Source of the DNA: an uncultured Candidatus Saccharibacteria bacterium
GTDB lineage: Bacteria; Patescibacteriota; Doudnabacteria; UBA920; O2-02-FULL-48-8
Length of the DNA: 64,000 nucleotides
Direction: 5' to 3'
NCBI GenBank assembly: GCA_964605735.1
Contig: CAZSDS010000001.1
Location: forward strand, 134,771-198,770
Shown: positions 5,572-52,470 of the stretch, one piece after another
How positions within the stretch are numbered: the stretch's first letter is position 1
Layout of the letters: each line of letters begins with the position of its first letter
Translations under genes and position numbers: made by a program
The notes under the pieces: model-generated
Told to the model about the DNA's origin: nothing
The model's database searches: none
Seen by the model: only the letters and a program-made list of their open reading frames with translations

Positions 5572-6006
5572 ATGGCAGACACTACTACAATTGAAGAACC
5601 AAAGGTTGCGGCTACCGCCCCGGCTCCGGCAACTTCCAAGAGGAAGAAGTCAAAAGTCAAAGTGGCCCGCGGCCGAATCTACATCCAGTCTACCTATAAC
5701 AACACCATTATCACCGTCACCGATATGACCGGAAACGTGATTGGGTGGGGTTCGTCAGGCAGGACCGGATTCAAAGGTTCTAAGAAATCCACTCCATACG
5801 CCGCGCAGAGAACCATGGAAGACACGATTGCCCGCGTAAAGGACACTGGATTGAATGAAGTCGACGTATTCGTTAAAGGAATCGGCTCCGGACGTGAATC
5901 AGCTATCCGCGCATTGCAGGGCAGCGGCTTCACAATCTTATCCATTAAAGATAAGACTCCGATCCCGCACGGCGGCGTCCGACCTAAGAAAGCAAGGAGA
6001 GTATAA
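5572..6006 (+). CDS. rpsK: 30S ribosomal protein S11
   Basis: IYIQSTYNNTIITVTD...GSGRESAIRAL is the S11 signature. Confidence 0.95.
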   Translation: MADTTTIEEPKVAATAPAPATSKRKKSKVKVARGRIYIQSTYNNTIITVTDMTGNVIGWGSSGRTGFKGSKKSTPYAAQRTMEDTIARVKDTGLNEVDVFVKGIGSGRESAIRALQGSGFTILSIKDKTPIPHGGVRPKKARRV

Positions 6007-6620
6007 TGGCTAGACACATTGGACCAAAAGTAAAACCGTCCCGCCGGTTCGGCGAGGCGCTCACGCCCAAAGCTGAAAAGTATTTGGCAAAGCGCAATTA
6101 CCGCCCTGGCCAGCACGGTCAGAACCCTCTGAGATCTTCGGAATACGGACTCCAGCTGAGAGAAAAGCAGAAGGCAAAAATCATTTATGGCGTGATGGAA
6201 AAACAATTCCGTCGCTACTATGAAAAAGCCACCAAAAAAGTTGGAGTTACCGGCGACGCATTACTGCAGTTGCTGGAGATGAGGCTTGATAACATTGTTT
6301 TCCGACTCGGTTTGGCAACAACCCGCGCCCAGGCAAGACAATTGGTCTCTCACGGATTTTTCGAGATCAACGGAAAGAAAGTGAATATTCCTTCTTATGA
6401 AGTTAAAGTCGGAGATCAGATCAAGGTCCGAGACTCAAAGAAAAAATCAGGCTATATGGCTAATCTCGCTCAAGTGCTGGCAAAAGGCCAGAACAACACT
6501 CCGGAATGGGTTAGTCTGGACGCCAAGGAACTTGCAGGCAAAGTCTTGTCCGTTCCAACCGCCGAACAGCTCGATCACAAGTTGAACACCCAGCTGATCG
6601 TCGAACACTACTCAAGGTAA
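6006..6620 (+). CDS. rpsD: 30S ribosomal protein S4
   Basis: MARHIGPKVKPSRRFG...RLDNIVFRLGLATTRAQARQLVSHG is the S4 signature. Confidence 0.95.
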   Translation: MARHIGPKVKPSRRFGEALTPKAEKYLAKRNYRPGQHGQNPLRSSEYGLQLREKQKAKIIYGVMEKQFRRYYEKATKKVGVTGDALLQLLEMRLDNIVFRLGLATTRAQARQLVSHGFFEINGKKVNIPSYEVKVGDQIKVRDSKKKSGYMANLAQVLAKGQNNTPEWVSLDAKELAGKVLSVPTAEQLDHKLNTQLIVEHYSR

Positions 6621-6668
6621 TCAATAATTATGGGCTGATCAAAGGCCCAGAAAACATCGTTCAAACAT

Positions 6669-7598
6669 ATGGAAAACATCCCACTCCCTAATAAAGTTTC
6701 TTTTGAAGAACTTGGGAACAATAAGTATCAGGTTGTCATGGAGCCTCTTTACCCAGGCTATGGCGTGACAATTGGAAACAGCTTGCGCCGCATTCTGCTT
6801 TCATCATTGCCTGGTGCAGCAGTAACCGCTGTCCGCATCAAGGGTGTGGATCATGAATTTTCAACCGTTCCTAACGTCAAAGAAGATGTTATCGAGATCA
6901 TCCTCAACCTCAAGCAAATGCGCATGAAAGTTCACACTGACCAGCCAGTGACTTTGGAATGCAAAGTTAAAGGCGAAAAGTCCGTGACCGCAGGTGATTT
7001 CAAAGGCAATTCAGACGTGGAGATCGTGAACCCAGATTTGCACATTGCAACTCTGGACAACAAGAATGCAGATTTTGACATGGAAGTTGTGGTTCAGGCC
7101 GGCCGAGGATATGTACCGGTAGAGCAGAGAGAAAATGAAAAACTGGAAATCGGCATGATTGCAGTTGATGCAATTTACACCCCGGTTAAGACCGTAAACT
7201 TTGAAGTCAAAAACGTCCGCGTTGGCCAAATTACCAACTTTGACCAGCTGACCATGACTTTGGAAACTGATGGGACAATCGACGGTAAAGATGCTATCGA
7301 CCAGTCAGCAAAGATTTTGCTGGATCACTTCAGCATGTTCACCAAGTCCTCAATGGAAGCTGAAGCGCCAGCTCCTGCTTTGAACGCAGCTGCTGAGGAA
7401 GGCATTAGAATCACTGAGGAAGATGATTTGAAGTCATTGGGGCTTTCAAACCGTTCATACAATGCTTTGATCAAGAACAACATCACCAGAATCTCTGATC
7501 TGCAGAAGATGACCCACGAAGATTTGCTGGGCGTGGAAGGTTTGGGGGACAAATCAATTGAAGAAATTGAACGATTAATCAGCACATACAATCAATAA
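6669..7598 (+). CDS. rpoA: DNA-directed RNA polymerase alpha subunit
   Basis: Has the N-terminal dimerisation region and the C-terminal domain (LGLSNRSYNALIKNNITRISDL) of RpoA. Confidence 0.95.
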   Translation: MENIPLPNKVSFEELGNNKYQVVMEPLYPGYGVTIGNSLRRILLSSLPGAAVTAVRIKGVDHEFSTVPNVKEDVIEIILNLKQMRMKVHTDQPVTLECKVKGEKSVTAGDFKGNSDVEIVNPDLHIATLDNKNADFDMEVVVQAGRGYVPVEQRENEKLEIGMIAVDAIYTPVKTVNFEVKNVRVGQITNFDQLTMTLETDGTIDGKDAIDQSAKILLDHFSMFTKSSMEAEAPAPALNAAAEEGIRITEEDDLKSLGLSNRSYNALIKNNITRISDLQKMTHEDLLGVEGLGDKSIEEIERLISTYNQ

Positions 7599-7616
7599 TC
7601 CGAACTTATTAGTAAT

Positions 7617-7958
7617 ATGAGACACTTAAAGAAGAAGAAAATCGGCTCCGGAAAAGATCACGCCAGAAAACTGGTCCGCAGCATTGCTGCAGCCGCAATC
7701 GTCTACGAGAAGATTCAGACCACTGAAGCTCGTGCCAAGATTGCCCGCCAGTTGGTTGAGCGCATGATCACCAAAGGAAAAAAGGACGACTTGCACAACA
7801 AGCGCCAGATTTTCTCTGCCCTCCCAAACAACGCTGCCCGCAAGGTCATCGAAGTCCTGGGTCCGCGCTACAAAGAACGCGCCGGCGGTTACACCCGCAT
7901 TGTGCGTTTGGGCAACAGCAAGGACGGCATGCCGAAGGTTCAGTTGGAATTAGTATAG
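7617..7958 (+). CDS. rplQ: 50S ribosomal protein L17
   Basis: MRHLKKKKIGSGKDHARKLVR...GGYTRIV is the L17 signature. Confidence 0.95.
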   Translation: MRHLKKKKIGSGKDHARKLVRSIAAAAIVYEKIQTTEARAKIARQLVERMITKGKKDDLHNKRQIFSALPNNAARKVIEVLGPRYKERAGGYTRIVRLGNSKDGMPKVQLELV

Positions 7959-7962
7959 TTTT

Positions 7963-8382
7963 ATGAAGACATTTTTACCTAAAGTTAAAGAGGTCAAGCG
8001 CGCCTGGTATGAAGTAGATGCCAGCAAGTTTACACTTGGACGCTTGGCTACCAGAGTGGCTACTGTCTTGCGCGGCAAGCACAAAGCAACCTTTACTCCT
8101 CACATGGATGTTGGTGATTTTGTGGTTGTGAAGAACGCTGCAAAGGTTAAGTTTACCGGAAGAAAGCTGGATCAGAAGATCTATTACCGAAACACTGGTT
8201 ATCCAGGCGGTATCAGAACCAAGTCTTTGGCAGAGCGAATGGAAAAAGAACCTGAAAAGGTGATCCGGGACGCGGTTTATAACATGGTTGACGCCAACAG
8301 ATTGAGAAAAGGTATTTTGCGCAGGCTTAAGGTCGTGGCCGGCGATAAGCATGAATTTCCCACAGAAAAGGAGATCAAGTAA
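7963..8382 (+). CDS. rplM: 50S ribosomal protein L13
   Basis: MKTFLPKVKEVKRAWYEVDA...HMDVGDFVVVKNA is the L13 signature. Confidence 0.95.
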   Translation: MKTFLPKVKEVKRAWYEVDASKFTLGRLATRVATVLRGKHKATFTPHMDVGDFVVVKNAAKVKFTGRKLDQKIYYRNTGYPGGIRTKSLAERMEKEPEKVIRDAVYNMVDANRLRKGILRRLKVVAGDKHEFPTEKEIK

Positions 8383-8984
8383 TGACAGCAGAAAAGAAGA
8401 CCACAGCTAAGACCGCCAAAAGCGCTTCCGCAAAGACAGCTGCCAAAAAGCCAGCGGCAAAGAAGGCTGCTGCGCCTCGCGCAAAGAAAACCGAGAAGCA
8501 TGAGAAGGCTGATAAGCCGGTTAAGACATCAGCTCCGGAAATCACTGCTGCTGAGCCGGTAGCTCAGCCAGCCGCATTCGTTGCAAAGGATATTGGCAAC
8601 AACAAATTCTACGCGGTAGGCAAGCGAAAGACGGCAGTTGCCCAGGTGATCATCACTGGTGGCGCTGGAGAAGTGACAGTGAACGAATTGGCAATGGATA
8701 AATACTTTGGCACCAAAGATTTGCAGGGTATTGTCGTTCAGCCGTTGAGCGCCGTTGGTTTGGACAAGACTTTGAAGATCCGCGGCAAGGTTCAGGGTGG
8801 AGGAATTCACGCCCAGTCTGAAGCCATGCGCCACGCGATTACCCGCGCCATTGTAGCAATGGATCCGGATGCACGCAGAACTTTGAAGAAGCTTGGATTT
8901 TTGACCCGAGACCCTAGAGTCAAGGAAAGAAAGAAGCCAGGTTTGCGCAGAGCACGAAGAGCTCCTCAGTTCAGCAAGCGCTAA
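8382..8984 (+). CDS. rpsI: 30S ribosomal protein S9 with a Lys/Ala-rich N-terminal extension of about 70 aa
   Basis: C-terminal ...GGGIHAQSEAMRHAITRAI...GLRRARRAPQFSKR is the S9 signature; the N-terminus TAKTAKSASAKTAAKKPAAKKAAAPRAKK is low-complexity. Confidence 0.95.
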   Translation: MTAEKKTTAKTAKSASAKTAAKKPAAKKAAAPRAKKTEKHEKADKPVKTSAPEITAAEPVAQPAAFVAKDIGNNKFYAVGKRKTAVAQVIITGGAGEVTVNELAMDKYFGTKDLQGIVVQPLSAVGLDKTLKIRGKVQGGGIHAQSEAMRHAITRAIVAMDPDARRTLKKLGFLTRDPRVKERKKPGLRRARRAPQFSKR

Positions 8985-9002
8985 ACATTTCATAAGAAAT
9001 TT

Positions 9003-9030
9003 CAAAAACCTCCTTTACGGGAGGTTTTTT
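9003..9030 (+). terminator. intrinsic terminator of the ribosomal-protein operon
   Basis: aaaaacctcctttacgggaggtttttt: a GC stem followed by a T-run. Confidence 0.7.
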
Positions 9031-9231
9031 GATTGCCCAAAGTGCAAGTATTGATGGAAATTTAAGCTAATTACGATTTAATTTAATCTTAATACAATCT
9101 TGACCACAATGACTTTCAAGGAAATTTTTGCTAAACAAGCTATCAACGACCATGATGAAATTCAAACATTTTTTTCAGGCAATTAGCAAGTGAAAAAGGA
9201 ACAACTGCAAAGCTGTTCCTTTTTGTACAAT

Positions 9232-9477
9232 TCACATGCCTTGTTCTCGGGCATGCTCCTTGCACTTGATTTTGCCGAGCCCATTCGTTAGAATCAGCCG
9301 GACAGTATTGTCTTTGTTCTCCTCGCTCCGCCATTCGGGGAGCAGTCGGGTAATCAGTGCAAGTTCATCATCCGAAAGCAGGAAAAGAAACCCCCGATTT
9401 ACGCATTTTTGGCCATTCCTTTCTTCCTCCTCACAACGGAAAGTGCCCCACGATTCCGCATTAAAAAGCTCAGGCAT
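9232..9477 (-). CDS. hypothetical small protein (81 aa)
   Basis: GGAGG lies 3 nt upstream of the ATG on the minus strand; a hairpin with flanking A/T runs (9195-9228) follows the stop. Confidence 0.3.
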   Translation of the reverse strand: MPELFNAESWGTFRCEEEERNGQKCVNRGFLFLLSDDELALITRLLPEWRSEENKDNTVRLILTNGLGKIKCKEHAREQGM

Positions 9478-9606
9478 ACACCTCCAATTTTGGCGCGGTA
9501 GTAACTCTACCTGACCGGCCGTATTTTTGCAACTCTATGAATTTAGGCATTGGTATGAATCTTCAGACCTAAATATGTGGTATAATGCAAAAAAGGGCTT
9601 AAAGTC

Positions 9607-10377
9607 ATGAAACCAAAAACAAAGCGCAAAATAAACCGCCCAAAAAAGCAAGCAAATATGTTAACCGGCTTAGGGGAAGCCACCCGCATCCCACAGGGCT
9701 ATGCAAAATCCATGCAATGGTTTGCTGAACGCATGGTTTTGGCATTTTTGCTTATCGCAACCGTTTCATTTGCCGGCGGCGCTTTGTTTGTCTTGCATTG
9801 GTCTGAGCCGATCGCGGAAAGCCACGCTTATGCCATAGTCAGCGACAAATCTCGGCTTGCACAGCAGGGGATTAAAACCTTTTCCCAGCAGGTTATTGAC
9901 GTTGCTTCACCCTTGTTCGGTGACTTGATCAAGCAAACCAGGGATCAGCGTGATTTGGTGGCGGAACAATTTGCCTACCGCAAAGAAAAATTGAAAGCTT
10001 ATTTGCTTAGCAAAAATTCTCCTTTTGCTGAGGATGAAGGAGCGATAGAAGCATTCGCAAAATCAAAAAACATGAAACTGATGGTGGCTATATCATTTGT
10101 GGAAAGCACCTTTGGCAAGCACTGCTATTATTTCAACTGCAGTGGTATTGGAGGCACGCCGCCAACTCTGAGAAAATATGACAGCTATTCTGAATGGATT
10201 CAGGACTTTGATACCTTGCTTGAGAATCGCTACAAAGATCTTCCTCCGGAAAAATTCATTGGGCTTTATGTTCAGCCGGGCAGTGCAAACTGGCTTTATG
10301 GCGTAAAACAAGTCATCAGGGAGTTTGAAGAACAGGATATTGAGGGCGTTAAAATACTGCAGGAGCAAAAAGCATAA
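9607..10377 (+). CDS. membrane-anchored glucosaminidase-domain protein (FlgJ/mannosyl-glycoprotein endo-beta-N-acetylglucosaminidase-like peptidoglycan hydrolase)
   Basis: N-terminal TM helix; AISFVESTFGKHCYYFNCSGIGG resembles the glucosaminidase domain A-x-ESGWGK segment; an extended -10 sequence TGTGGTATAAT lies at about 9576-9588. Confidence 0.5.
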   Translation: MKPKTKRKINRPKKQANMLTGLGEATRIPQGYAKSMQWFAERMVLAFLLIATVSFAGGALFVLHWSEPIAESHAYAIVSDKSRLAQQGIKTFSQQVIDVASPLFGDLIKQTRDQRDLVAEQFAYRKEKLKAYLLSKNSPFAEDEGAIEAFAKSKNMKLMVAISFVESTFGKHCYYFNCSGIGGTPPTLRKYDSYSEWIQDFDTLLENRYKDLPPEKFIGLYVQPGSANWLYGVKQVIREFEEQDIEGVKILQEQKA

Positions 10378-16050: not shown

Positions 16051-16434
16051 TGCCTCTTAAAGTAAGCGTGCAATCGCGTCCGCCTTTGGCGGATGAGGAA
16101 AGTCCGAACACGTGGATTGAATGAAGTCTCATGAGTTCATGCAATCATTCGTTGCGGGTAACGCCCGTCGAAAGTAATTTTAGGGATGCGAGCAGTGACG
16201 GTTAAGCAGAGATGCGAGACTATCCAGAGCCGCAAGGTAACGGATAAATCTGATGGTAACATCAGGGTGAAACGGCTAAATTCCAACGAATCAGTGCAAT
16301 ACCGAATAGGGTCCTTTACGGGCCGGGTAGGTAGCTGGAGCTAGTCAGCAATGAGTAGCCAAGAGAGATGATTGCTACACTGCAGGAATGCAGGATAGAC
16401 AGAATTCGGCTTACAGCTTGCTTTTTAAGAGGCA
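16051..16434 (+). ncRNA. rnpB: RNase P RNA (bacterial type)
   Basis: Conserved GAGGAAAGTCCGAACAC (P4/CR-I) at about 16104 and ACAGAATTCGGCTTACAG (CR-V) at about 16399; a P1 stem tgcctcttaaagtaagc / gcttgctttttaagaggca closes the molecule; a terminator hairpin follows at 16440-16470. Confidence 0.85.
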
Positions 16435-25408: not shown

Positions 25409-25744
25409 ATGAACATTGCCATAAAAACCACGAATTTTGAAATGACGGAAGCAATAAAGGCATATGCGGAAGATAAAGTGGGAGCACTGGAGAAATTTGT
25501 GGATGCCATGCAGGCCAATATTGAACTGGAAAGGGACAGAAAACATACTTCAGGAAATGTGTTTAGGGCAGAGGTTATGATGACCGTTGGCGGCAAACAG
25601 TTAAGGGCGGACGCCAGCGCCACAGATATGTATGCGGCAATTGACTTAGTCATCCCTAAATTGAAAGAACAAATCGCTAAATATAAAGATAAGCGCGATA
25701 CGTTGCAAAAAAGGGGAGCAAGGGCTGCAAAAAACAAGAATTAA
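25409..25744 (+). CDS. hpf: ribosome hibernation promoting factor / RaiA (short form)
   Basis: MNIAIKTTNFEMTEAIKAYAEDKV...FRAEVMMTVGGKQLRA matches the S30AE family. Confidence 0.9.
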   Translation: MNIAIKTTNFEMTEAIKAYAEDKVGALEKFVDAMQANIELERDRKHTSGNVFRAEVMMTVGGKQLRADASATDMYAAIDLVIPKLKEQIAKYKDKRDTLQKRGARAAKNKN

Positions 25745-25762
25745 ATAGGGTTAGTGGTAAAA

Positions 25763-25790
25763 AATGGCTTATTTAAGCCATTTTTTACTT
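25763..25790 (+). terminator. hpf terminator
   Basis: aaaaatggcttatttaagccatttttt; the same hairpin motif (aatggctta-NNN-aagccRtttt) recurs at 4427-4450. Confidence 0.65.
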
Positions 25791-25797
25791 GTCTGGA

Positions 25798-25826
25798 TTG
25801 ACGGATTGCCCCCGTTATGCTAAACT
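25798..25826 (+). promoter_or_regulatory. sigma70-type promoter driving the first GC-rich island transcript
   Basis: TTGACG (25798-25803), 17-nt spacer, TAAACT (25821-25826); a 14-nt perfect palindrome GTTGAACGTTCAAC lies immediately downstream at 25841-25854. Confidence 0.5.
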
Positions 25827-25832
25827 GCTTGC

Positions 25833-26407
25833 ATTCGTAAGTTGAACGTTCAACATCCGTCCAGGAGGACACTCATGACCGACGCCCGCGACCGTTACGG
25901 CGGCCAGCTGACCAGCCCCGCCACCTCAACGATGCATACGCCGCGTTTCTCGTCTCGCCTCGTCGCCGCCGCCGCACGCCGCGTGTAGCCACAAACCGGC
26001 TGGCCGCGGTTCGCACTGTACTACTCGTTTAGCATCTGTTCTCGCCTAAGAGGAGAGTGATGATGCCTCAGATTCGAGCACCGACGTAGTCACGCCAGAC
26101 ACCGGCGGCTGAGATTTGGGCCGAAGCTATCGGCTTCTCTGCCGCCACGCAACCCATTTACATCGTTTCGGTTTCCGCTCCTGAGCGCATTGGTTTTGAT
26201 GAAGCCAGGACCGGATCGGCGGATCTCCATTTGGATCTCCGCCGCGAACGGGGCGCTTTGATTTGCCGCCCCATGCGACCGTGCGTCGCGATTAGTCGGC
26301 AGTCGTTAACCTCAGGGTTCGCCGCCGCGTTGCCGTTGCTTGCGCGCGACGGGTTCCCTTCTTCCCGGCCAACTCATCTCTCATTGAGTTGGCCGGCTTT
26401 ATTTTGC
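25833..26407 (+). other. GC-rich (about 62%) transcription unit 1, about 570 nt, bounded by a promoter and an intrinsic terminator: candidate large ncRNA and/or small-protein gene
   Basis: No ORF of 60 aa or more lies within it (the one listed ORF 26231..26524 begins inside it but only by running through its terminator); it contains a 37-codon SD-led ORF (25875-25988) and a 9-codon SD-led ORF; it ends in a 12-bp stem ccggccaactca/tgagttggccgg plus ctttatttt (26365-26407). Confidence 0.4.
25875..25988 (+). CDS. small SD-led ORF (37 aa) MTDARDRYGGQLTSPATSTMHTPRFSSRLVAAAARRV; may be a leader peptide or unrelated to function
   Basis: AGGAGGA (25863-25869) lies 5 nt before the ATG; very high GC; below the 60-aa cutoff of the ORF track. 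Confidence 0.25.
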   Translation: MTDARDRYGGQLTSPATSTMHTPRFSSRLVAAAARRV

Positions 26408-26432
26408 AAAAAAATCCCAGAGCGGCAAGTCC

Positions 26433-26461
26433 TTGACGTTATGCTGTCGCTTATTTATGAT
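26433..26461 (+). promoter_or_regulatory. sigma70-type promoter of GC-rich unit 2
   Basis: TTGACG (26433-26438), 17-nt spacer, TATGAT (26456-26461). Confidence 0.5.
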
Positions 26462-26467
26462 AAATTC

Positions 26468-26771
26468 GCAATCCAATTCCGGGTTTGCAAAAACACAGGG
26501 AGGTTTTTACGACAAAAAGTGTGAGACGTCGCGTCGTTCGTGCCCCTCGCCCAAAAAGGCCCGCGGACACAAGCGCCGCCTCGCCAATTGGGCATTGGCC
26601 TGAACCCTGACTAGACGGGTTCTACCACCCACCACACTTTCGTTCGGCAATACCCGCATGCGAACCGGGATGTTAGCTTGCCCCTTAACCGCACAACAAC
26701 GGCATCGAAGTGGCTAGCGCCCGGCTCATCCATAAGGCCCGCTCACTAGCTGAGACGGGCCTTTCTTTTTA
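26468..26771 (+). other. GC-rich transcription unit 2, about 300 nt (candidate ncRNA), ending in an intrinsic terminator
   Basis: Has a GGGAGG sequence but no start codon within reach; stops occur in all frames; terminator aggcccg-ctcactagctgaga-cgggcct plus ttcttttt at 26735-26771. Confidence 0.35.
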
Positions 26772-26838
26772 CCTTGGTTTTTAGTATAATATTGGAGCTA
26801 ATTTTAAGTATTTTTCGATAATAACAGCCACTAATTAC

Positions 26839-29514
26839 ATGGGATTTTTCAGCAATTTATTCAGCGATTCAAATCAGCGCGTTATAGCCAAGCTTCAGGA
26901 ACGAGTTGATGAAATCAACGCGCTTGAGCCGGAATTTGAAAAGAAGTCACAAGAGGAGTTAAGGGAATTAACTGCTGTTTGGAAAAAAGAGCTGGCAGGT
27001 TTAGCCGCAGGAGAAGGATCCGACCCTGCCGGAGATTTGGAAAAAACTAAAGCGTATTTAGATCAGATTCTGCCTCAGGCATTTGCGGTTGTCCGTGAAG
27101 CTTCAAAGAGAACTTTGGGTCAGCGCCACTATGACGTGCAAATGATGGGTGGTATGGTTTTGCACCAGGGGTCAATCGCAGAAATGAGAACTGGTGAAGG
27201 TAAAACTTTGGTGGCAACTTTGCCAATGTATTTAAACGCCCTGACTGGGCGCGGTGTGCACCTTGTTACGGTAAACGATTACCTGGCGCGCTGGCAGGCT
27301 TCCTGGATGGGGCAAATTTATCATTACTTGGGAATCAGTGTTGCGTCCATTCAGCACCAGCAGGCTTTTCTCTATGACCCGACTTACCAGCCGGAAGAGG
27401 AAGAAATTAAAGCCGTTGAATCACAGGTGGAAGGTTTGGTTTTGGACGTAAAGAACATGCGGCCAGTGAACCGACGCCAGGCTTATGCGGCTGACATTAC
27501 GTACGGCACAAACAACGAATTTGGTTTTGATTATCTCCGCGACAACATGGTTTGGTCTAAAGACCAGATGGTCCAGCGCAGTGAGCCATATTTTGCCATC
27601 GTTGACGAAGTCGACTCTATTTTGATCGATGAAGCGCGTACGCCTTTGATCATTTCAGCGCCTGACACAGAGCCAACAGACAAATACTACGAGTTTGCAA
27701 AAGTTGTAAACAAACTGACCGAAGACGAAGACTACAACGTTGACGAAAAAAAGAAAGTTGCGACTTTAACAGAAGCTGGCATTGCCAAACTGGAACAGCT
27801 TTTGAATTTGAAAAATATTTACGACAAAGACGGAATCAATACTGTCCATCACATTGAGCAGGCTTTGCGGGCCAAGACTTTGTTTAAAAAGGACGTGAAC
27901 TATGTAGTGCGCAGCGGGGAAATCGTTATTGTTGACGAATTTACCGGACGATTGATGTTTGGCCGCCGCTACTCAGAAGGGTTGCACCAGGCTATTGAGG
28001 CTAAAGAAGGAGTGAAGATCCAGCAGGAAAGCAAAACTCTGGCCACCATCACTTTCCAGAACTTGTTCCGCTTGTACCATAAACTTGCTGGTATGACTGG
28101 TACTGCTGAAACCGAGGCTGAGGAATTCCATAAGATTTATAAGCTGGAAGTGGTCCAGATTCCAACCAACAAACCGATTCAGCGCCAGGATTTGCCTGAT
28201 CAGGTTTATAAGAGCGTGGAAGGGAAGTATCGGGCGGTGGCGCAGAAGGTCAAGGAACTGCACCAAATTGGCCGTCCGGTTTTGCTGGGTACTATTTCCA
28301 TTGAGAAGAATGAGCTGCTTTCAAATTTGCTGACGCAGGCTGGCGTGCCGCATGAGCTTTTGAACGCCAAAAACCATGAGCGTGAAGCGCAGATTATTTC
28401 CCAGGCCGGGCGTTTGGGAGCCGTAACTTTGGCCACCAACATTGCTGGACGTGGCGTGGACATTATTCTGGGCGGGAACCCTGCTGATCCGGAAGAGCAG
28501 GCTAAGGTTAAGGAGCTCGGTGGTTTGGCTGTGATTGGTACGGAGCGCCATGAATCGCGCCGCATTGACAACCAGTTGCGTGGACGTGCAGGACGTCAGG
28601 GGGATCCTGGATCCTCTCAATTCTTCCTGTCATTGGAAGATGATTTGATGCGCTTGTTTGGCGGTGACAGGGTTATAAGGATGATGAACATGGTGGGCAT
28701 GCCTGAAGACCAGCCAATTGAAGCTGGTTTGATTTCCAAAACCATTGAAGCGGCGCAGAGGAAAATTGAAGGCTTGAACTTTGATACCCGTAAGCACGTG
28801 CTTGAATATGACGATGTAATGAACAAGCAAAGAACCGTCATTTACAAAAAGCGCAGAGAGATTTTGGATAAGGCGGCGAGCGGCCAGGATTTGTCGGAAG
28901 AAGTCCTGGGCTTGGTGACAAAAGAAATTAAGGAGTTTGTTAATTTCCATTTTGCCCAGGAAGAGGTTGATTACAAAGAAATCTATCAGAACGCAGCGGC
29001 TATGATGCCTTTGCAGCCTGGTGATATGAAAGATGCCGGGGATGTCCAGCAAGTTGCTGAGCATTATATTTCGATTGCTGAACGCGAGTATGCGGCTAAA
29101 AAGAACCGGGTTGGGGCTGAGGTTATGGCGCAGATGGAGCGTATGGTTTATTTGCGGGCGATTGACATACTCTGGCAGCAGCATTTGGATACTATGGAGC
29201 ATTTGCGGGATTCTGTGAGATTGCGCGGGTATGGCCAGCGCGATCCATTACTTGAATTTAAAAACGAAGGATTCCAGCTGTTCCAGCGCTTGCTTGATGA
29301 GGTTAATGCCCAGGTGGCAAACATGATTTTCAAGATTGATGTCATGCAACAGCCCGCGCCAGTTGTTCCGGTGAATAATGAAATCCCTGCCGGAGAAGAA
29401 CCGGGAAGAAACGACCCATGCCCTTGTGGGTCAGGGAAGAAGTATAAACGCTGTGGATTGTTAAATACGGAAGAGCACCAAAAAAATCTTGTCAAAATGC
29501 AGGGTGGTGTTTAG
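26839..29514 (+). CDS. secA: preprotein translocase ATPase SecA
   Basis: DEAD-motor motifs (MRTGEGKTLVATLP, LIDEARTPLIIS), HSD/HWD, and the C-terminal zinc-binding sequence CPCGSGKKYKRCG. Confidence 0.95.
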   Translation: MGFFSNLFSDSNQRVIAKLQERVDEINALEPEFEKKSQEELRELTAVWKKELAGLAAGEGSDPAGDLEKTKAYLDQILPQAFAVVREASKRTLGQRHYDVQMMGGMVLHQGSIAEMRTGEGKTLVATLPMYLNALTGRGVHLVTVNDYLARWQASWMGQIYHYLGISVASIQHQQAFLYDPTYQPEEEEIKAVESQVEGLVLDVKNMRPVNRRQAYAADITYGTNNEFGFDYLRDNMVWSKDQMVQRSEPYFAIVDEVDSILIDEARTPLIISAPDTEPTDKYYEFAKVVNKLTEDEDYNVDEKKKVATLTEAGIAKLEQLLNLKNIYDKDGINTVHHIEQALRAKTLFKKDVNYVVRSGEIVIVDEFTGRLMFGRRYSEGLHQAIEAKEGVKIQQESKTLATITFQNLFRLYHKLAGMTGTAETEAEEFHKIYKLEVVQIPTNKPIQRQDLPDQVYKSVEGKYRAVAQKVKELHQIGRPVLLGTISIEKNELLSNLLTQAGVPHELLNAKNHEREAQIISQAGRLGAVTLATNIAGRGVDIILGGNPADPEEQAKVKELGGLAVIGTERHESRRIDNQLRGRAGRQGDPGSSQFFLSLEDDLMRLFGGDRVIRMMNMVGMPEDQPIEAGLISKTIEAAQRKIEGLNFDTRKHVLEYDDVMNKQRTVIYKKRREILDKAASGQDLSEEVLGLVTKEIKEFVNFHFAQEEVDYKEIYQNAAAMMPLQPGDMKDAGDVQQVAEHYISIAEREYAAKKNRVGAEVMAQMERMVYLRAIDILWQQHLDTMEHLRDSVRLRGYGQRDPLLEFKNEGFQLFQRLLDEVNAQVANMIFKIDVMQQPAPVVPVNNEIPAGEEPGRNDPCPCGSGKKYKRCGLLNTEEHQKNLVKMQGGV

Positions 29515-29516
29515 GT

Positions 29517-30974
29517 ATGGAAATTCTCTGGTTAATTTTAATTGTACTTGCGGGCGGATATATTGCTAAGTGGTTGTTTAGCGTTGCCAAGAGTAGTGGT
29601 AAAACAATTTTATCAAATGAAGAGCTAGTTAAATATGGAATTGGAGCAAGAAGACAATCGCGGAAATTTTTAACAATTGAAAAACCAAATGTAAATTTCT
29701 CAGAGGAAACAAAAAAAGTTCTAAACTTATTGGAAAATACGACTTCTAACTTATTTATTACAGGCAGAGCTGGAACAGGGAAGTCTACGTTACTTAAATA
29801 TTTTCGTGCCACTACTAAAAAGAATTTGGTAGTATTAGCACCTACCGGAGTAGCTGCAGTTAATGTGCAGGGACAAACAATACATTCATTTTTTAAATTT
29901 GGACCGAATATTACACTTGATAAAGTGAGAAAGCGATATGGGGACGAAGCACAAGTTTATAAGAAACTTGAAACCTTAATCATTGATGAAATTTCAATGG
30001 TCAGGGCTGACTTATTCGACTGCTTACAAAAATTTTTATTTTTAAACGGACCGAAGCCTTTTACTCCATTTGGAGGAGTACAGACTGTTGTATTCGGTGA
30101 TCTCTACCAATTACCACCAGTTGTAAAAGAAGAAGAAAAATATATTTTTAATAATCATTATAAAGGACCTTATTTTTTTAACTCTTTATGCTATTCTCAG
30201 GCTAAATTCAAAATCGTTGAATTAACACATGTTTACCGCCAATCTGATGAAGATTTTATTGAAATTTTGGATTCAATTCGGCTAAACCAAGCAAAACAAC
30301 ATCACTTAGATAGGATAAACCAGTGTTTTATTGAGGGATATGAATTGCCAAAAGAAGATTATGTTATTTCACTCGTTACAACAAATAATTCAGCTAGGCA
30401 AATTAATCAGAATAAATTAGATGCTTTGCCTGGTCAAAGTAAATTGTATAGAGCAAAAATAACCGGTGAATTTAAAGATACCAACTTGCCTACAGAAAAT
30501 GAACTATATTTAAAACCTGGTGCCCAAGTCATGTTGCTTAATAATGATTCCAAAAATCGTTGGGTCAATGGCGATGTTGCTAAAGTTATAAGTCTTTCAG
30601 AAGATTCCATTAGAGTTTTGTTTGAAGACAAAACGTTTGATGATATTTCCCTAAACACTTGGGAGATGTCAAGATTTGTTTTTGATGAAGAAGCAAGGAG
30701 AATCAGGTCTGAAGTTATCGGATCATTTACTCAGTTGCCTATAAAATTAGCTTGGGCAGTCACAATTCATAAATCACAGGGCAAAACTTTCGATAAAGCA
30801 GTACTTGACTTCGGATCAGGTAGTTTTGCCACAGGTCAAACTTATGTTGCATTAAGCAGATGCAGGTCACTGTCAGGGTTAGTTTTAAGAACTCCAATTG
30901 CGGAACAGGATATTTTTATAGATAAAAAAGTAGTAGAATATATGTCTGATAATTCAAGCAGAATTAAGGTATAG
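29517..30974 (+). CDS. PIF1-family (RecD-like SF1B) DNA helicase
   Basis: Walker A sequence FITGRAGTGKSTLL; IIDEISMV; VFGDLYQLPPV; TIHKSQGKTFD; markedly AT-rich codon usage compared with secA; starts 2 nt after the secA stop. Confidence 0.8.
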   Translation: MEILWLILIVLAGGYIAKWLFSVAKSSGKTILSNEELVKYGIGARRQSRKFLTIEKPNVNFSEETKKVLNLLENTTSNLFITGRAGTGKSTLLKYFRATTKKNLVVLAPTGVAAVNVQGQTIHSFFKFGPNITLDKVRKRYGDEAQVYKKLETLIIDEISMVRADLFDCLQKFLFLNGPKPFTPFGGVQTVVFGDLYQLPPVVKEEEKYIFNNHYKGPYFFNSLCYSQAKFKIVELTHVYRQSDEDFIEILDSIRLNQAKQHHLDRINQCFIEGYELPKEDYVISLVTTNNSARQINQNKLDALPGQSKLYRAKITGEFKDTNLPTENELYLKPGAQVMLLNNDSKNRWVNGDVAKVISLSEDSIRVLFEDKTFDDISLNTWEMSRFVFDEEARRIRSEVIGSFTQLPIKLAWAVTIHKSQGKTFDKAVLDFGSGSFATGQTYVALSRCRSLSGLVLRTPIAEQDIFIDKKVVEYMSDNSSRIKV

Positions 30975-31182
30975 CAATTAGACTAAAATTTGACTTTTTA
31001 GAAAAAGCGATGTATAAAAAATAAAAAACTATTTACACATTGGAATAAGATTAAAGTTAAATAAAAATATTTATTGCTCGTAGTAAACAAAATCCGCGTT
31101 GACAAGCGCGGGTCTTTGTTTTATATTTGAGACAAGGCGGCGTTTGCCGCTATTTTAATTCTAGCAATAAAGGAGCTAAATT

Positions 31183-31392
31183 ATGGCAAAAAGCGTAAAA
31201 GTAACAAAAGAAAGTGATTCGGGAAGAAATCAAGAATTTATTGATACGAAGTCAGGGCGACATATGGGCAGATCTGACTTTGTGAAGAAGATTGAGGAAG
31301 GAAACTATGACGATTACCATGTTCGGAGGATTAATGGCGTGAAAACTCCAGTTTCTAATCCTGATCATAGCGAAGGAAATAATCTAGACTAA
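31183..31392 (+). CDS. small DUF3892-like protein
   Basis: 69 aa; the C-terminal YHVRRINGVKTPVSNPDHSEGNNLD resembles the DUF3892 C-terminus; SD aaggagc. Confidence 0.4.
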   Translation: MAKSVKVTKESDSGRNQEFIDTKSGRHMGRSDFVKKIEEGNYDDYHVRRINGVKTPVSNPDHSEGNNLD

Positions 31393-31398
31393 TTATTT

Positions 31399-32106
31399 AT
31401 GTCTAAACTAATTTTTGACATAGAAACAGTTGGCGAAAATTTTGATGAACTTGATGAAACCACTCAGGGTGTTTTGACGCGATGGATCAAACAAGATTCC
31501 GAAACTGAAAATGAGTATTTAAGAGCATTAGAAAATCTAAAGAATGGACTCGGGTTTTCCCCTTTAACGGGTGAAATAGTTGCAATTGGTGTATTTGACC
31601 CCGATAAAAATCAAGGAGGTGTTTATTTTCAGGCTCCAGAACAATACATTGCAGACTTTGAAGAAAATGGAATCAAATATAAGCAAATGAATGAAAAAGA
31701 AATGCTTGAAAAATTTTGGGAGATATCTTCAAAGTACCAAGAATTTATAAGTTTTAATGGGAGAGGATTTGATGCACCATTTTTAGCAATCCGATCAGCA
31801 ATCCATAAAATTAAGCCGGCCAAAGATCTTATGGATGGAAGGTATTTGTATCAGCAGAAGAAAGTAACACATATTGATCTGCAGGACCAGCTTTGTTTTT
31901 ATGGATCCGTGCGCCGTAAGGGGAGTTTGCATCTATTCACTCGTGCTTTTGGTATTAAAAGTCCCAAGTCAGAAGGAATATCAGGAGATGATGTTGGTAG
32001 ATTATTTCAAGAAAAAAAATTTGTAGAAATTGCGAAATATAATGCAGGTGACTTATTCGCAACAAAAGAACTTTATGATTATTGGAATAATTACTTAAGA
32101 TTATAG
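31399..32106 (+). CDS. DEDD-type 3'-5' exonuclease (PolB-exonuclease-like / DnaQ-like fold)
   Basis: FDIETVG is Exo motif I; the overall size and FNGRGFD match predicted 3'-5' exonucleases related to the PolB exo domain. Confidence 0.55.
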   Translation: MSKLIFDIETVGENFDELDETTQGVLTRWIKQDSETENEYLRALENLKNGLGFSPLTGEIVAIGVFDPDKNQGGVYFQAPEQYIADFEENGIKYKQMNEKEMLEKFWEISSKYQEFISFNGRGFDAPFLAIRSAIHKIKPAKDLMDGRYLYQQKKVTHIDLQDQLCFYGSVRRKGSLHLFTRAFGIKSPKSEGISGDDVGRLFQEKKFVEIAKYNAGDLFATKELYDYWNNYLRL

Positions 32107-32188
32107 TTGAATATTAGAGCATAAAACTTGTCGTTGCCAAGTTGACGTTTGTTTACTGTGGAGGTAACATCCAGACAGTTCATTCAAA

Positions 32189-32749
32189 TTAAATAATTTT
32201 ATAATATTTTCTGTACCAAGATAGTGTTCTTAAAAGCATAAACCTCTTAATTATTCGGTCTTTGTATTCCCTAGTCGGCAACAAATTACAGAAGTGTGCC
32301 ATTTTTGGATACAGATCAGCAAATACCAGAGGTATAAAAAATAGGCCTACCTTGCGGTAAGCCCCAGTTCCTTGCCCTCTTGATGTTCTTCTTGTGCTCT
32401 TCGTTCGTGATGCATTCGCATTCACCTGCGAGGCGCGCTGCCAGATGCGCATCTCGAATTGCGACTGCGAGCCTGCTCATATCGAGCTTCTTTTTCATAA
32501 ATCCCCCTGATGACACAAGGCCTCGCGAAGAAGCTGGTAAGTAGTTTTCCGTTGTAACATTCCCACGATCTGAAAACTGAGTTGCAGTTCACGTGGAGTG
32601 CTTCCGGCCAACTTGGCCAAGCTTCGCCAGGTGGTCAAAAAGTCTCCGTTTTTGAAGCCTTCCTGTGCTGCAAGGTACAGCTTGATTCTGCGACTGGTTC
32701 GCCACTTACGTATTACTCTAAACACATTCCACCTCCTTTGACCGTGCAT
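32189..32749 (-). pseudogene. possible degraded gene (three consecutive minus-strand ORF fragments in shifting frames, HTH-like segment)
   Basis: Fragments of 84, 66 and 87 aa in three frames; WRSLAKLAGSTPRELQ is HTH-like; GC content is higher than the flanking AT-rich island. Confidence 0.2.
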
Positions 32750-32786
32750 TCTATCTCAAAAAGGCAGGAAAGTCAACCCTAAATAT

Positions 32787-33239
32787 ATGAACTATTTTCT
32801 TATGAAATCTGAGCCTGAGAGTTATTCCATAGACGACTTTCAGCGCGACAAAGAAACAATCTGGACCAGCATCCGCAATTACCGCGCGCGCAATATCATG
32901 CGTGACGAAATGAAACCAGGTGATTTGTTTTTGTTCTACCATTCCATGGCAAAAGACAATGGCGTGGTCGGCATTGGGAAAATCGTAAAAAATAATTTGC
33001 CGGACGAAACTGCTCTTGATAAGAATGACGAGTACTATGACCCAAGAGCCACCAAGGATAAAAACCCCTGGATTGCCCCCAAGGTTAAGTTCGTCAAAAA
33101 GCTTAAGCGAGCCGTAACTTTGGAAGAAATAAAAAAGGACAAGCGTTTCAAAGACATGGTCCTGGTGAAAATCCCAAGACTTTCAGTCCAACCAGTTTCC
33201 AAAAAGCACTTTGACGCAATCGTACAACTAGCTTCTTAA
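32787..33239 (+). CDS. EVE (PUA-like) domain protein
   Basis: MNYFLMKSEPESYSIDDF...WTSIRNYRARNIMRDEMKPGDLFLFYHS is the canonical EVE/DUF55 N-terminus. Confidence 0.85.
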   Translation: MNYFLMKSEPESYSIDDFQRDKETIWTSIRNYRARNIMRDEMKPGDLFLFYHSMAKDNGVVGIGKIVKNNLPDETALDKNDEYYDPRATKDKNPWIAPKVKFVKKLKRAVTLEEIKKDKRFKDMVLVKIPRLSVQPVSKKHFDAIVQLAS

Positions 33240-33291
33240 TTGCGCCTTTGATTTTTCTTTGCTAACCTGAGCAAAAGAACAGGAGGCGTGT

Positions 33292-33576
33292 ATGAACAGG
33301 AAGCACGCAAAACTTCGTCTGCTTGTCCTGATCTCAGTCTTGCTGAGTTTTGGCCAGGCACCGGTCCACAGGGACGAGTCGCTCACTGTCTCGGCAACCC
33401 TAAGGAGAAGCAATCATCATCTGGAAACTGACTACTTTTACTTTGGCGAATATGGGTCGTTCCACGCCCGGCGCGGGACTGACCTGTACAGGTGGATGGA
33501 ACTGCATCAGGACAACGAGGTCATGCTGACCGTGAAGAAGAAAGGCCAACGAGAGCTGTCTTGGCTTATTAAATAA
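33292..33576 (+). CDS. small secreted hypothetical protein
   Basis: SD aacaggagg; signal-peptide-like LRLLVLISVLLSFGQA. Confidence 0.4.
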   Translation: MNRKHAKLRLLVLISVLLSFGQAPVHRDESLTVSATLRRSNHHLETDYFYFGEYGSFHARRGTDLYRWMELHQDNEVMLTVKKKGQRELSWLIK

Positions 33577-33720
33577 AGTTCTTGCGAACACGCACTTAGT
33601 GCGAACATATTACTAAGTCTGATCCAAACGATCAGACTTTTTCTTTAAGCATTTGCGGAAGGCCATGCCACTGCATTATGATACATATGTTTGCTGACCC
33701 AATAGTAAATTCTCCAAAAC

Positions 33721-34275
33721 ATGATGAAAGAAAAAGCCTTGAGTGAAATAGCGGCGGAAATAGCCAGATGCCGGACCTGTAAAAAAGACAAAATCGGTTT
33801 GCCTGTGCCGGGAGAGGGGAGCGCTGACGCCAAAATCGTTTTTCTTGGGGAAGCTCCGGGAAAAAAGGAGGCGCAAACCGGCAAACCCTTTATTGGCCCG
33901 GCTGGGAAAGTCCTTCACCGGCTTTTAGCTCAAGCCGGCATCAGGGGCAGTGAAGTCTTCATCACCAGTCCTGTTAAATATTTGCCAAAACACGTAACCC
34001 CTACGCTGGAAGAAATCAGGCATGGTAGAAAACATTTGGATAAACAACTGGCTGTCATCAAGCCTAAGCTAATAGTTTTGATGGGACGGGTGGCTTGCCA
34101 GGCAATTTTGGAAAGAGACTATTCGCCGGCCCTTGATCATGGTAAAATTATCAAGTCAGATGGTGTCAGCTATTTTTTAACGTACCACCCAGCCGCATCA
34201 TTGCACAATCCAAATTTAAGAACAGTAATTGCAGCTGATTTCAAGAAGCTCAAGAAACTAATAGCCAATTTATGA
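33721..34275 (+). CDS. uracil-DNA glycosylase, family 4
   Basis: CRTC...GEAPG...GKPFIGPAGKVL motifs of family-4 UDG. Confidence 0.85.
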   Translation: MMKEKALSEIAAEIARCRTCKKDKIGLPVPGEGSADAKIVFLGEAPGKKEAQTGKPFIGPAGKVLHRLLAQAGIRGSEVFITSPVKYLPKHVTPTLEEIRHGRKHLDKQLAVIKPKLIVLMGRVACQAILERDYSPALDHGKIIKSDGVSYFLTYHPAASLHNPNLRTVIAADFKKLKKLIANL

Positions 34276-34916
34276 TCCATGATTTAATAGAGCTGTACCA
34301 TAAGTTAACCAACCCTGATGAGTTGTCCCTGCTTATGGATACGGTTCTGTCGGGCTGGTGGATTTATGTGGTCATGGTTGCCATCATTTTTTCCGAGAAC
34401 GCCTTTCTGGTTGGGTTTGTCCTGCCTGGGGATTCTTTGCTGTTTACCCTGGGCGTCCTTGCCGGAGCTGGAAGAATCAATCTTTACGTTTTACTGCTTA
34501 TTTTAATGGCGGCGGCCATTTTAGGGGATAGTACAGGATATTATTTGGGTAAGAAGACCGGGCCCAAAATCTTCAGCCGCCCGGACTCCAAACTTTTTAA
34601 ACAAGAGTATGTCCGCCGGACACAGAAATTTTTTGAAAAGTATGGCGGGAAAGCCGTGATGATCGCCCGCTTTTTGCCTGTCATTAGAAGTTTTACTCCA
34701 TTTATGGCCGGGGTAGGCAACATGCATTATTCAACTTTTTTGGTGTACAACGTCATTGGCAGTGTCACATGGGTTTGTTTGTTTACGATTCTTGGCTATA
34801 CCCTTGGTAATGTCCCGATTGTTGCCAATAATTTTGAGAAAGCGGTTTTGCTGATTATAGTTTTGTCTTTCATGCCGCCGATCATCGAGTACATCAAACA
34901 CCGCCGCAGTAAGTAG
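34272..34916 (+). CDS. DedA-family membrane protein
   Basis: FSENAFLVGFVLPGDSLLFTLGVLAG is the DedA/SNARE-associated core. Confidence 0.85.
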   Translation: MIHDLIELYHKLTNPDELSLLMDTVLSGWWIYVVMVAIIFSENAFLVGFVLPGDSLLFTLGVLAGAGRINLYVLLLILMAAAILGDSTGYYLGKKTGPKIFSRPDSKLFKQEYVRRTQKFFEKYGGKAVMIARFLPVIRSFTPFMAGVGNMHYSTFLVYNVIGSVTWVCLFTILGYTLGNVPIVANNFEKAVLLIIVLSFMPPIIEYIKHRRSK

Positions 34917-52394: not shown

Positions 52395-52470
52395 TGGGGT
52401 GTAGCCAAGCGGTAAGGCAGTGGACTCTGAATCCACCATTTCCTAGGTTCGAATCCTAGCACCCCAGCCA
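52395..52470 (+). tRNA. tRNA-Gln (anticodon CUG)
   Basis: UGGGGUG acceptor stem; D-arm GCCAAGCGGUAAGGC; anticodon stem-loop GUGGA-CUCUGAA-UCCAC; T-arm CUAGG-UUCGAAU-CCUAG; CACCCCA-G-CCA at the 3' end. Closely resembles E. coli tRNA-Gln. Confidence 0.85.

Follow-up and report, generated by a model that had tools for sequence, protein, structure and literature searches.

Gabija and Hachiman are anti-phage systems that combine a helicase with a nuclease. Gabija combines the OLD-type ATPase-TOPRIM nuclease GajA with the UvrD-type helicase GajB, and Hachiman combines HamA with the superfamily 2 (SF2) helicase HamB. The locus analysed here lies in a stretch of 64,000 nucleotides (the window; contig CAZSDS010000001.1, positions 134,771 to 198,770) from an uncultured bacterium of the Doudnabacteria. 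It comprises the genes of a PIF1-family helicase, a 69-amino-acid (aa) phage-family protein and a PolB-type 3′-5′ exonuclease, which follow the secA gene. The first-pass annotation of the window had ascribed Gabija- or Hachiman-like logic to these three genes, without assigning them to those families. The likeness amounts to no more than a helicase gene and a nuclease gene lying together, and no component of either system was detected in the locus with PADLOC or Pfam. We propose that the block from 29517 to approximately 32300 probably arrived by horizontal transfer as a patchwork, its three genes being independent in function and not a co-evolving system.

The base composition of the three genes is exceptional in the 64-kb window. 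Their GC contents are 0.336 for the PIF1 gene, 0.381 for the 69-aa gene and 0.346 for the exonuclease gene, and they alone among the genes of the window fall below a GC z-score of -2. The GC content at third codon positions (GC3) is 0.245, 0.314 and 0.254, respectively, which corresponds to z-scores of -3.5, -2.6 and -3.4 relative to the 64 genes in the window that encode 100 aa or more (0.501 ± 0.073). The codon usage is shifted accordingly: TTA accounts for 43% of the leucine codons in the trio versus 15% in the reference and CTG for 3% versus 21%, and GAA accounts for 88% of the glutamate codons versus 62%. In 200-nt windows, the GC content falls from 0.43–0.46 to 0.30–0.35 at the junction of secA and the PIF1 gene, stays at 0.28–0.32 in the non-coding tail (32107–32300) and reaches 0.49–0.51 by 32300–32700. 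The upstream secA gene is native in composition (GC 0.477, GC3 0.520), as are the downstream genes encoding an EVE-domain protein, a uracil-DNA glycosylase (UDG) and a DedA protein (GC3 0.517, 0.454 and 0.544, respectively). The low-GC islet is thus real and sharply bounded, with its left edge at the secA stop codon. Since the EVE, UDG and DedA genes and a small minus-strand gene are of native composition, it covers three genes and approximately 2.8 kb, and not the 3.8 kb proposed initially. The AT-richness, the distinct codon usage, the placement of the open reading frames (ORFs) and the gap of 2 nt between the secA stop codon and the PIF1 start codon were all confirmed. The compositional foreignness of the trio, evident in its GC, GC3 and codon outliers, makes its horizontal acquisition probable, as the first-pass annotation had assumed.

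The recurrence of the trio was assessed in approximately 290 loci. Of these, 86 were centred on the exonuclease (80 genome loci and six from closer relatives), 39 on the 69-aa protein, 86 on PIF1 (six cellular neighbourhoods and 80 viral loci) and 80 on secA. Neither the trio nor any pair including the 69-aa gene was found in any of the loci centred on the components. No member of the 69-aa family was found in the 86 exonuclease-centred loci, either by tblastn or with a profile hidden Markov model (HMM). None of the 39 loci with relatives of the 69-aa gene contained a PIF1 or exonuclease gene nearby, and neither the 69-aa gene nor the exonuclease gene was present near the PIF1 relatives in the six cellular or the 80 viral loci. 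Remote DUF3892-like ORFs beside exonuclease or PIF1 genes were also searched for with a profile HMM among ORFs of at least 40 aa, and none scored below E = 1. A PIF1 gene adjoins the exonuclease gene in only one of the 86 loci (L033), and its product shares 33% identity with the window protein and is devoid of the N-terminal helix described below. The trio is not syntenic elsewhere, the outcome that the first-pass annotation had itself named as refuting, and its reading as a single system is not supported. Judged by these neighbourhoods, the three genes are probably not one co-evolving system.

The assignment of the first gene to the PIF1 family holds (PF05970, 97.6 bits, cut-off 25.9). Its product resembles the PIF1/Dda-type superfamily 1B (SF1B) helicases in having a full helicase core, and it matches the Dda-like helicases of PHROG 325 with E = 7e-82. 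Residues G83, A85–K89, D157–E158, Q198–P201, R241–Q242, T416–K419, Q421–T424 and Y443–R448 are invariant in alignment A4, so that the Walker A and B motifs and the later SF1B motifs are intact. The Pif1 2B (SH3-like) domain model PF21530 gave 19.2 bits, short of the 23.9 required. In NCBIfam the protein stays far below the cut-offs of RecD2 (72.8 vs 500 bits), RecD (46.1 vs 310) and TraA (54.7 vs 590). PADLOC returned only partial matches of the helicase core to candidate models (PDC-S68, PDC-S53, PDC-M16A) and to type IV RecD; in one example residues 62–202 were aligned with positions 607–745 of a profile of 1221. What distinguishes the window protein from its viral PIF1/Dda relatives is an N-terminal hydrophobic helix (mean Kyte-Doolittle value of 2.09 for residues 3–21), which is followed by a basic GIGKRRxSRK linker. 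The hydrophobic segment is kept in nine of 14 aligned PIF1 relatives. The clade with this helix includes the window protein (residues 1–60, 29517–29700) and the relatives P0122, P0123, P0126, P0129, P0130, P0139, P0160 and P0187. The viral relatives are at most 44–45% identical, and their matches start near residue 59, without the segment and the linker. The helix and the linker suggest a membrane-tethered PIF1 helicase.

The best cellular relative of the PIF1 protein is 60% identical, and the distribution of the family is patchy. The gene is solitary in all six cellular neighbourhoods, five of which represent accessory or conflict contexts. It is found with HEPN_AbiU2, DUF5677 and homing-endonuclease-like genes in L088, with a serine recombinase, a methyltransferase and Shedu SduA_C in L090, with Fic in L091, and with a ParB-methyltransferase, DUF6119 and NERD in L291. 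In the Kaiserbacteria locus L292 (5301–9105) it follows the gene for ribosomal protein L5 and precedes a Gp49/HTH toxin-antitoxin pair; the PIF1 gene, this pair and a DUF6804 gene split the ribosomal protein operon there. The short contig L089 shows only type-II/IV secretion genes, the same that follow the PIF1 gene in L088. In L088, from the genome of the closest relative, the PIF1 gene is likewise of low GC content relative to its flanks (0.383 vs 0.47). The most fitting description of the PIF1 protein is an accessory helicase that is carried on islands and acts independently; a conflict role is suggested for it by the neighbouring genes alone.

The second gene of the block is firmly assigned to the phage protein family PHROG 11939 (E = 1.1e-25, residues 1–69 on profile positions 4–72 of 72). 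Its label as DUF3892-like in the first-pass annotation stands above the threshold of PF13031, though marginally (22.8 bits, cut-off 22.3, E = 1.3e-4), and a precomputed PF13031 call is present in only about one tenth of the listed homologues. The family counts 201 homologues, with identities of 61–75% among the 120 listed, and relatives are encoded on 31 IMG/VR contigs. In the AlphaFold2 model, with a mean predicted local distance difference test (pLDDT) score of 81, strands at residues 5–10, 16–21 and 27–29 are followed by a helix at 30–39 and by two more strands forming a beta-hairpin. This order, a predicted three-strand meander and then a helix, would fit the DUF3892 fold as it has been described (PMC12419801), but searches of PDB and BFVD gave no significant structural match, and a comparison by sequence likewise returned no solved structure. 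Small DUF3892 proteins have been predicted to be linked to defence (Lau et al. 2022, preprint, 10.1101/2022.04.27.489752; Burroughs, Nicastro and Aravind 2025, PMC12419801). Relatives of the 69-aa gene, like DUF3892 genes, adjoin a stress-responsive repressor and the anti-phage system CBASS. In the window, the gene instead adjoins the core exonuclease gene and not a repressor, CBASS or a Min-Wnt effector.

The closest relatives of the 69-aa protein (70–74% identical, L092–L099) are encoded on a prophage-like backbone, with the gene at approximately 6001–6210 in L092 and L096–L099. The order of this backbone is a large serine recombinase, a terminase large subunit (PHROG 38, E = 9e-84), an N6/N4 methyltransferase, an S24/LexA-like repressor and the 69-aa gene. 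Variable cargo begins 3 nt after the 69-aa gene; it consists of a CBASS CD-NTase and Cap15 in one element, and of a metallo-beta-lactamase-fold protein and further genes in another. No part of this backbone is present in the window, and the candidate of a recombinase-terminase-methyltransferase-repressor backbone, of the kind that also surrounds one PIF1 relative, at 32189–32749 or in the flanks of the block was rejected, since tblastx returned no match. Comparison of the window with the mobile elements revealed no common operator or promoter ahead of the 69-aa gene; the coding region alone aligns. The defence association proposed for the trio survives in part: relatives of the PIF1 gene adjoin defence and mobile genes and relatives of the 69-aa gene adjoin CBASS, but the reading of the three genes as one system is not supported.

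The spacer between the PIF1 and 69-aa genes contains two terminator-like hairpins (31092–31113 and 31136–31151) and, at 31099–31127, the best promoter-like site of the region in a consensus scan. The hairpins and the promoter-like site suggest two transcription units. The fold of the spacer RNA has a z-score of -4.5 (200 shuffles), and no Rfam family matches it. A long-range helix (31070–31087/31154–31171) encloses both hairpins and ends just before the ribosome-binding site of the 69-aa gene. A role as a regulatory leader is possible for this structure, which the mobile-element copies do not conserve.

The third gene encodes a member of PF10108 (DNA_pol_B_exo2; 70.7 bits, cut-off 24), as the first-pass annotation had proposed. 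The protein resembles the PF10108 or "YprB-like" RNase H-fold exonucleases and the proofreading domain of family-B polymerases in its DEDDy motifs and predicted fold. The motifs D7-x-E9, N120-x4-D125 and Y214-x3-D218 are invariant in 15 sequences. The AlphaFold2 model has a pLDDT of 84.9 and a predicted template modelling score of 0.84, and in a Foldseek search of PDB it superposes best on the exonuclease domains of Pol epsilon and archaeal PolB, with E values between 4e-9 and 1e-7 and a query-normalised template modelling score of 0.54–0.62. It differs from the family-B polymerases as a stand-alone protein without a polymerase domain and as a member of a tightly conserved Patescibacteria family. 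In PADLOC it gave only a 15.7-bit DEDDh match. There are 6203 homologues, with identities of 66–85% among the 120 listed; the homologues with a taxonomic name belong to Doudnabacteria, Liptonbacteria, Colwellbacteria, Paceibacterota and Parcubacteria; the gene is encoded in at least 446 genome loci. No relatives were found in IMG/VR, and only five phage records match, with 26% identity; the matches to phage exonuclease PHROGs reach about 1e-11. Identical copies of the window proteins are encoded on a 79.7-kb Logan contig and on the 797-kb NCBI contig. The best 120 matches contain no second homologue from the 797-kb contig, so the exonuclease is probably the only copy of the genome. A literature search found no experimental characterisation of this exonuclease, and none of the literature retrieved about PF10108, Patescibacteria proofreading or PIF1 helicases of defence islands assigns a function.

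The best relative of the exonuclease (85% identical) is encoded in a metagenome-assembled genome of Candidatus Doudnabacteria. The closest relatives (85%, 81% and 71%) lie in three unrelated contexts, and the similarity to these loci stops at the stop codon of the gene. Elsewhere the neighbours are mostly housekeeping genes: ribosomal protein L27 in 10 loci, a conserved downstream protein of approximately 360 aa in 13 loci, which by motif reading is a polyprenyl synthase, orotate phosphoribosyltransferase, DnaN, DnaJ and TGT by sequence reading, and NUDIX and nucleoside 2-deoxyribosyltransferase, which were confirmed by Pfam. Directly upstream of the gene, ABC ATPases of the AAA_15/AAA_21 type are encoded in L013 and L018 (upstream of 8001), a methyltransferase-Mrr-REase fusion in L082 (6483–7997), and a radical SAM protein and PIF1 in L033 (5862–7995), where 5 nt separate the PIF1 and exonuclease genes. 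Conservation across Patescibacteria and the absence of relatives from viral contigs speak against the earlier view of the exonuclease as an accessory nuclease; it appears to be a Patescibacteria-wide, cell-borne core gene.

In 83 loci the GC content of the exonuclease gene follows that of the host (r = 0.90, mean difference +0.011, standard deviation 0.030). The window gene, 0.110 below its flanks, is the most extreme of them, and the next outlier is the Doudnabacteria locus L082 with -0.073 (0.38 vs 0.453). L082, which encodes the 85% identical exonuclease, has a low-GC patch of approximately 4 kb (5800–9800; 0.35–0.42 vs 0.48–0.50). This patch also holds Phd/ParE, a methyltransferase-Mrr fusion, an HTH_20 protein and small ORFs. 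The replacement of the exonuclease allele from a lower-GC relative is the most economical reading, more so than the addition of a foreign gene.

The left flank of the block is native. The secA gene is the last gene of a conserved murC-hpf-secA synteny block; upstream of secA, hpf is kept in 21 of the 80 related loci and murC in seven. The genes that follow secA in the window were found after it in none of these 80 loci. In its sharp GC and codon break, its accessory-type genes and its position at the end of a conserved block, the locus resembles small compositional islets at synteny breakpoints. It differs from them in having no integrase, att-like repeats or tRNA and in including an allele of a lineage core gene.

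Several observations weigh against the import of three independent genes. No integrase, flanking repeats or tRNA that would explain the arrival of the block were found. There are no recombinase genes in or adjoining it, the repeats flanking it are short and at chance level (for example a 17-nt inverted pair, 82% complementary, at 29470/32386), and the sole tRNA of the window is at 52395, away from the block. The recombinase, direct repeats and tRNA or tmRNA target of a self-mobile integrative element are thus not present. The case for acquisition is compositional throughout, because the best secA relative is only 72–79% identical and no close relative with an empty site was found among metagenome contigs with SecA; the nearest relatives (70–79% identical) have nothing in common downstream. 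The exonuclease groups with the Doudnabacteria copies (81–88% identity among three genomes), and DNA_alkylation and Peptidase_M10 genes lie a few kilobases downstream of it both here and in the genome that encodes P0003. This grouping and the shared downstream genes fit a long-resident exonuclease that underwent only allele exchange within the lineage. The near-identical GC3 values of the PIF1 and exonuclease genes would also fit their co-transfer as a working unit. Finally, several exonuclease loci have defence-type genes 3–9 nt upstream, which could reflect either an insertion hotspot or functional coupling; a looser coupling of the exonuclease to variable partners may therefore exist. One could imagine the exonuclease as a shared nuclease that island-borne "front-end" genes have repeatedly plugged into from this upstream position, forming modular conflict systems around a core gene; the front end in the window would be PIF1 and the phage-type DUF3892 protein, with PIF1 possibly membrane-tethered and acting at the entry of foreign DNA. 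We regard this scheme as very unlikely.

Vertical inheritance would explain the locus if the exonuclease, and perhaps PIF1, were long-resident genes whose low GC content is local or stems from an old exchange among Doudnabacteria, with only the 69-aa gene being foreign. The identity of the exonucleases of the three Doudnabacteria genomes, compared with at most 71% for the named homologues of other groups, the loose common synteny with the two downstream genes and the second Doudnabacteria genome with a low-GC exonuclease gene all agree with it. However, the deviation of GC3 from the genome value (0.25 vs 0.50, or 3.4–3.5 standard deviations) is confined to these genes, and the exonuclease matches the host GC content in 80 other lineages. 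The low-GC patch of L082 spans toxin-antitoxin and methyltransferase-Mrr genes and is hence an island as well, and the best PIF1 relative is just 60% identical in a patchily distributed family. Vertical inheritance is therefore unlikely. Somewhat less likely still is the origin of the block from the replication module of a phage or prophage, whose Dda/PIF1-like helicase, small phage protein and polymerase-type exonuclease would have stayed in the chromosome and become partly domesticated. The viral occurrence of the 69-aa family, the PHROG matches of PIF1 and the exonuclease, and a low GC content typical of phage-derived DNA would be expected of such an origin; yet the exonuclease is practically restricted to cells, the N-terminal segment of PIF1 is shared with cellular and not with viral relatives, and genes for structural proteins, an integrase or a repressor are missing from the vicinity.

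The three-gene anti-phage system implied by the first-pass annotation, in which PIF1 would unwind the DNA of the invader, the DUF3892-like protein would sense it or act as an adaptor and the exonuclease would degrade the exposed strand, is very improbable. It could draw on the common orientation and low GC content of the genes, on the 6 nt separating the 69-aa and exonuclease genes, on the predicted link of DUF3892 to defence, on the occurrence of PIF1 relatives in defence islands and on the close pair in L033. These points are outweighed by the failure of the trio to recur, by the divergence of the L033 helicase, by the mostly housekeeping surroundings of a conserved core exonuclease that is absent from viral contigs, by the hairpins that part PIF1 from the other two genes and by the partial nature of the PADLOC matches.

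We therefore return to the imported patchwork as the preferred explanation. The block would have been inserted exactly at the downstream end of murC-hpf-secA. Its PIF1 gene would derive from the hydrophobic-helix clade, which elsewhere is solitary and mostly located in defence or mobile islands. The product probably acts alone as an ATP-driven DNA helicase of presumed 5′-3′ polarity; it is possibly held at the membrane, its gene is probably read through from secA, and it may have a role in conflict. The 69-aa gene, which in prophage-like elements adjoins a LexA/CI-type repressor and heads cargo operons, most likely remained here from phage or mobile DNA. The exonuclease is predicted to trim 3′ DNA ends in replication or repair. 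Its low-GC allele most likely came with the block from a lower-GC relative (approximately 32% GC by regression) and would have replaced the resident allele.

The features of the locus are compiled in Table 1. The genes encoding the EVE protein, the UDG, the DedA protein and the 76-aa protein are ordinary neighbours outside the island. The identities of the EVE protein (PF01878, 174.3 bits, cut-off 23) and of the family-4 UDG (PF03167, 108.7 bits; TIGR00758, 144.5 bits, cut-off 125.3) were borne out, but their inclusion in a defence island was not: their GC3 is native, PADLOC gave no match to them or to the 69-aa protein, and no restriction or defence gene is fused to or adjoins the EVE gene here. 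The "frame-decayed HTH gene" seen earlier at 32189–32749 was rejected. The ORF at 32495–32725 has same-length homologues and is therefore an intact 76-aa gene; it has a GC content of 0.49 and is called as a gene on the source contig. Its family has three other clusters of 75–78 aa among 1.84 billion representatives, and the protein has no significant helix-turn-helix (HTH) or other match in Pfam, PHROG or NCBIfam. An overlapping ORF of 66 aa on the minus strand (32316–32516) has no homologues in the family libraries.

Table 1. Features of the low-GC block and its surroundings (positions in the window)
Feature	Position	Strand	Remarks
secA	26839–29514	+	891-aa ORF; SecA Pfam domains; stop codon TAG at 29512–29514
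PIF1-family SF1B helicase	29517–30974	+	485 aa; ATG at 29517; Pfam PIF1 E = 1e-27
AT-rich structured spacer	30975–31182	+	208 nt; terminator-like hairpins, promoter-like site
69-aa phage-family protein	31183–31392	+	PHROG 11939; marginal DUF3892
PolB-type DEDDy 3′-5′ exonuclease	31399–32106	+	235 aa, stand-alone; PF10108 E = 1.8e-19
AT-rich non-coding tail	32107–32300		approximate right edge of the low-GC block
76-aa gene	32495–32725	-	intact; very rare family; native-like GC
EVE-domain protein	32787–33239	+	150 aa, stand-alone; PF01878 E = 2e-51
94-aa ORF	33292–33576		
Family-4 uracil-DNA glycosylase	33721–34275	+	TIGR00758
DedA/VTT protein	34272–34916		

Rfam gave nothing significant in 29400–33800 and 25700–26900. 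Only two sites in the window exceed the Rfam gathering threshold, both of an ordinary kind: a bacterial class A RNase P RNA at 16058–16429 (125.8 bits) and tRNA-Gln(CTG) at 52395–52470. The gap between hpf and secA (25745–26838, 1094 bp) has no convincing ORF, a GC content of 54.5% compared with 46% for the window and extensive predicted structure, and neither blastn nor tblastx found similarity to it in the 80 related secA loci.

The locus is an ordinary small islet, probably acquired, whose genes all belong to known families. This removes a false lead for a new helicase-nuclease defence system in a small-genome, hard-to-culture group of bacteria, in which such a system would have been located. 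The analysis also brought to light three families. Members of the PIF1 clade, with their conserved hydrophobic helix at the N-terminus, are encoded by solitary genes throughout, and five of the six other genomes examined have the gene in a defence or mobile island. The stand-alone PolB-type exonuclease is unusually well conserved, uncharacterised and apparently a core gene of Patescibacteria. The 69-aa phage family heads cargo operons, including CBASS, beside LexA-like repressors.

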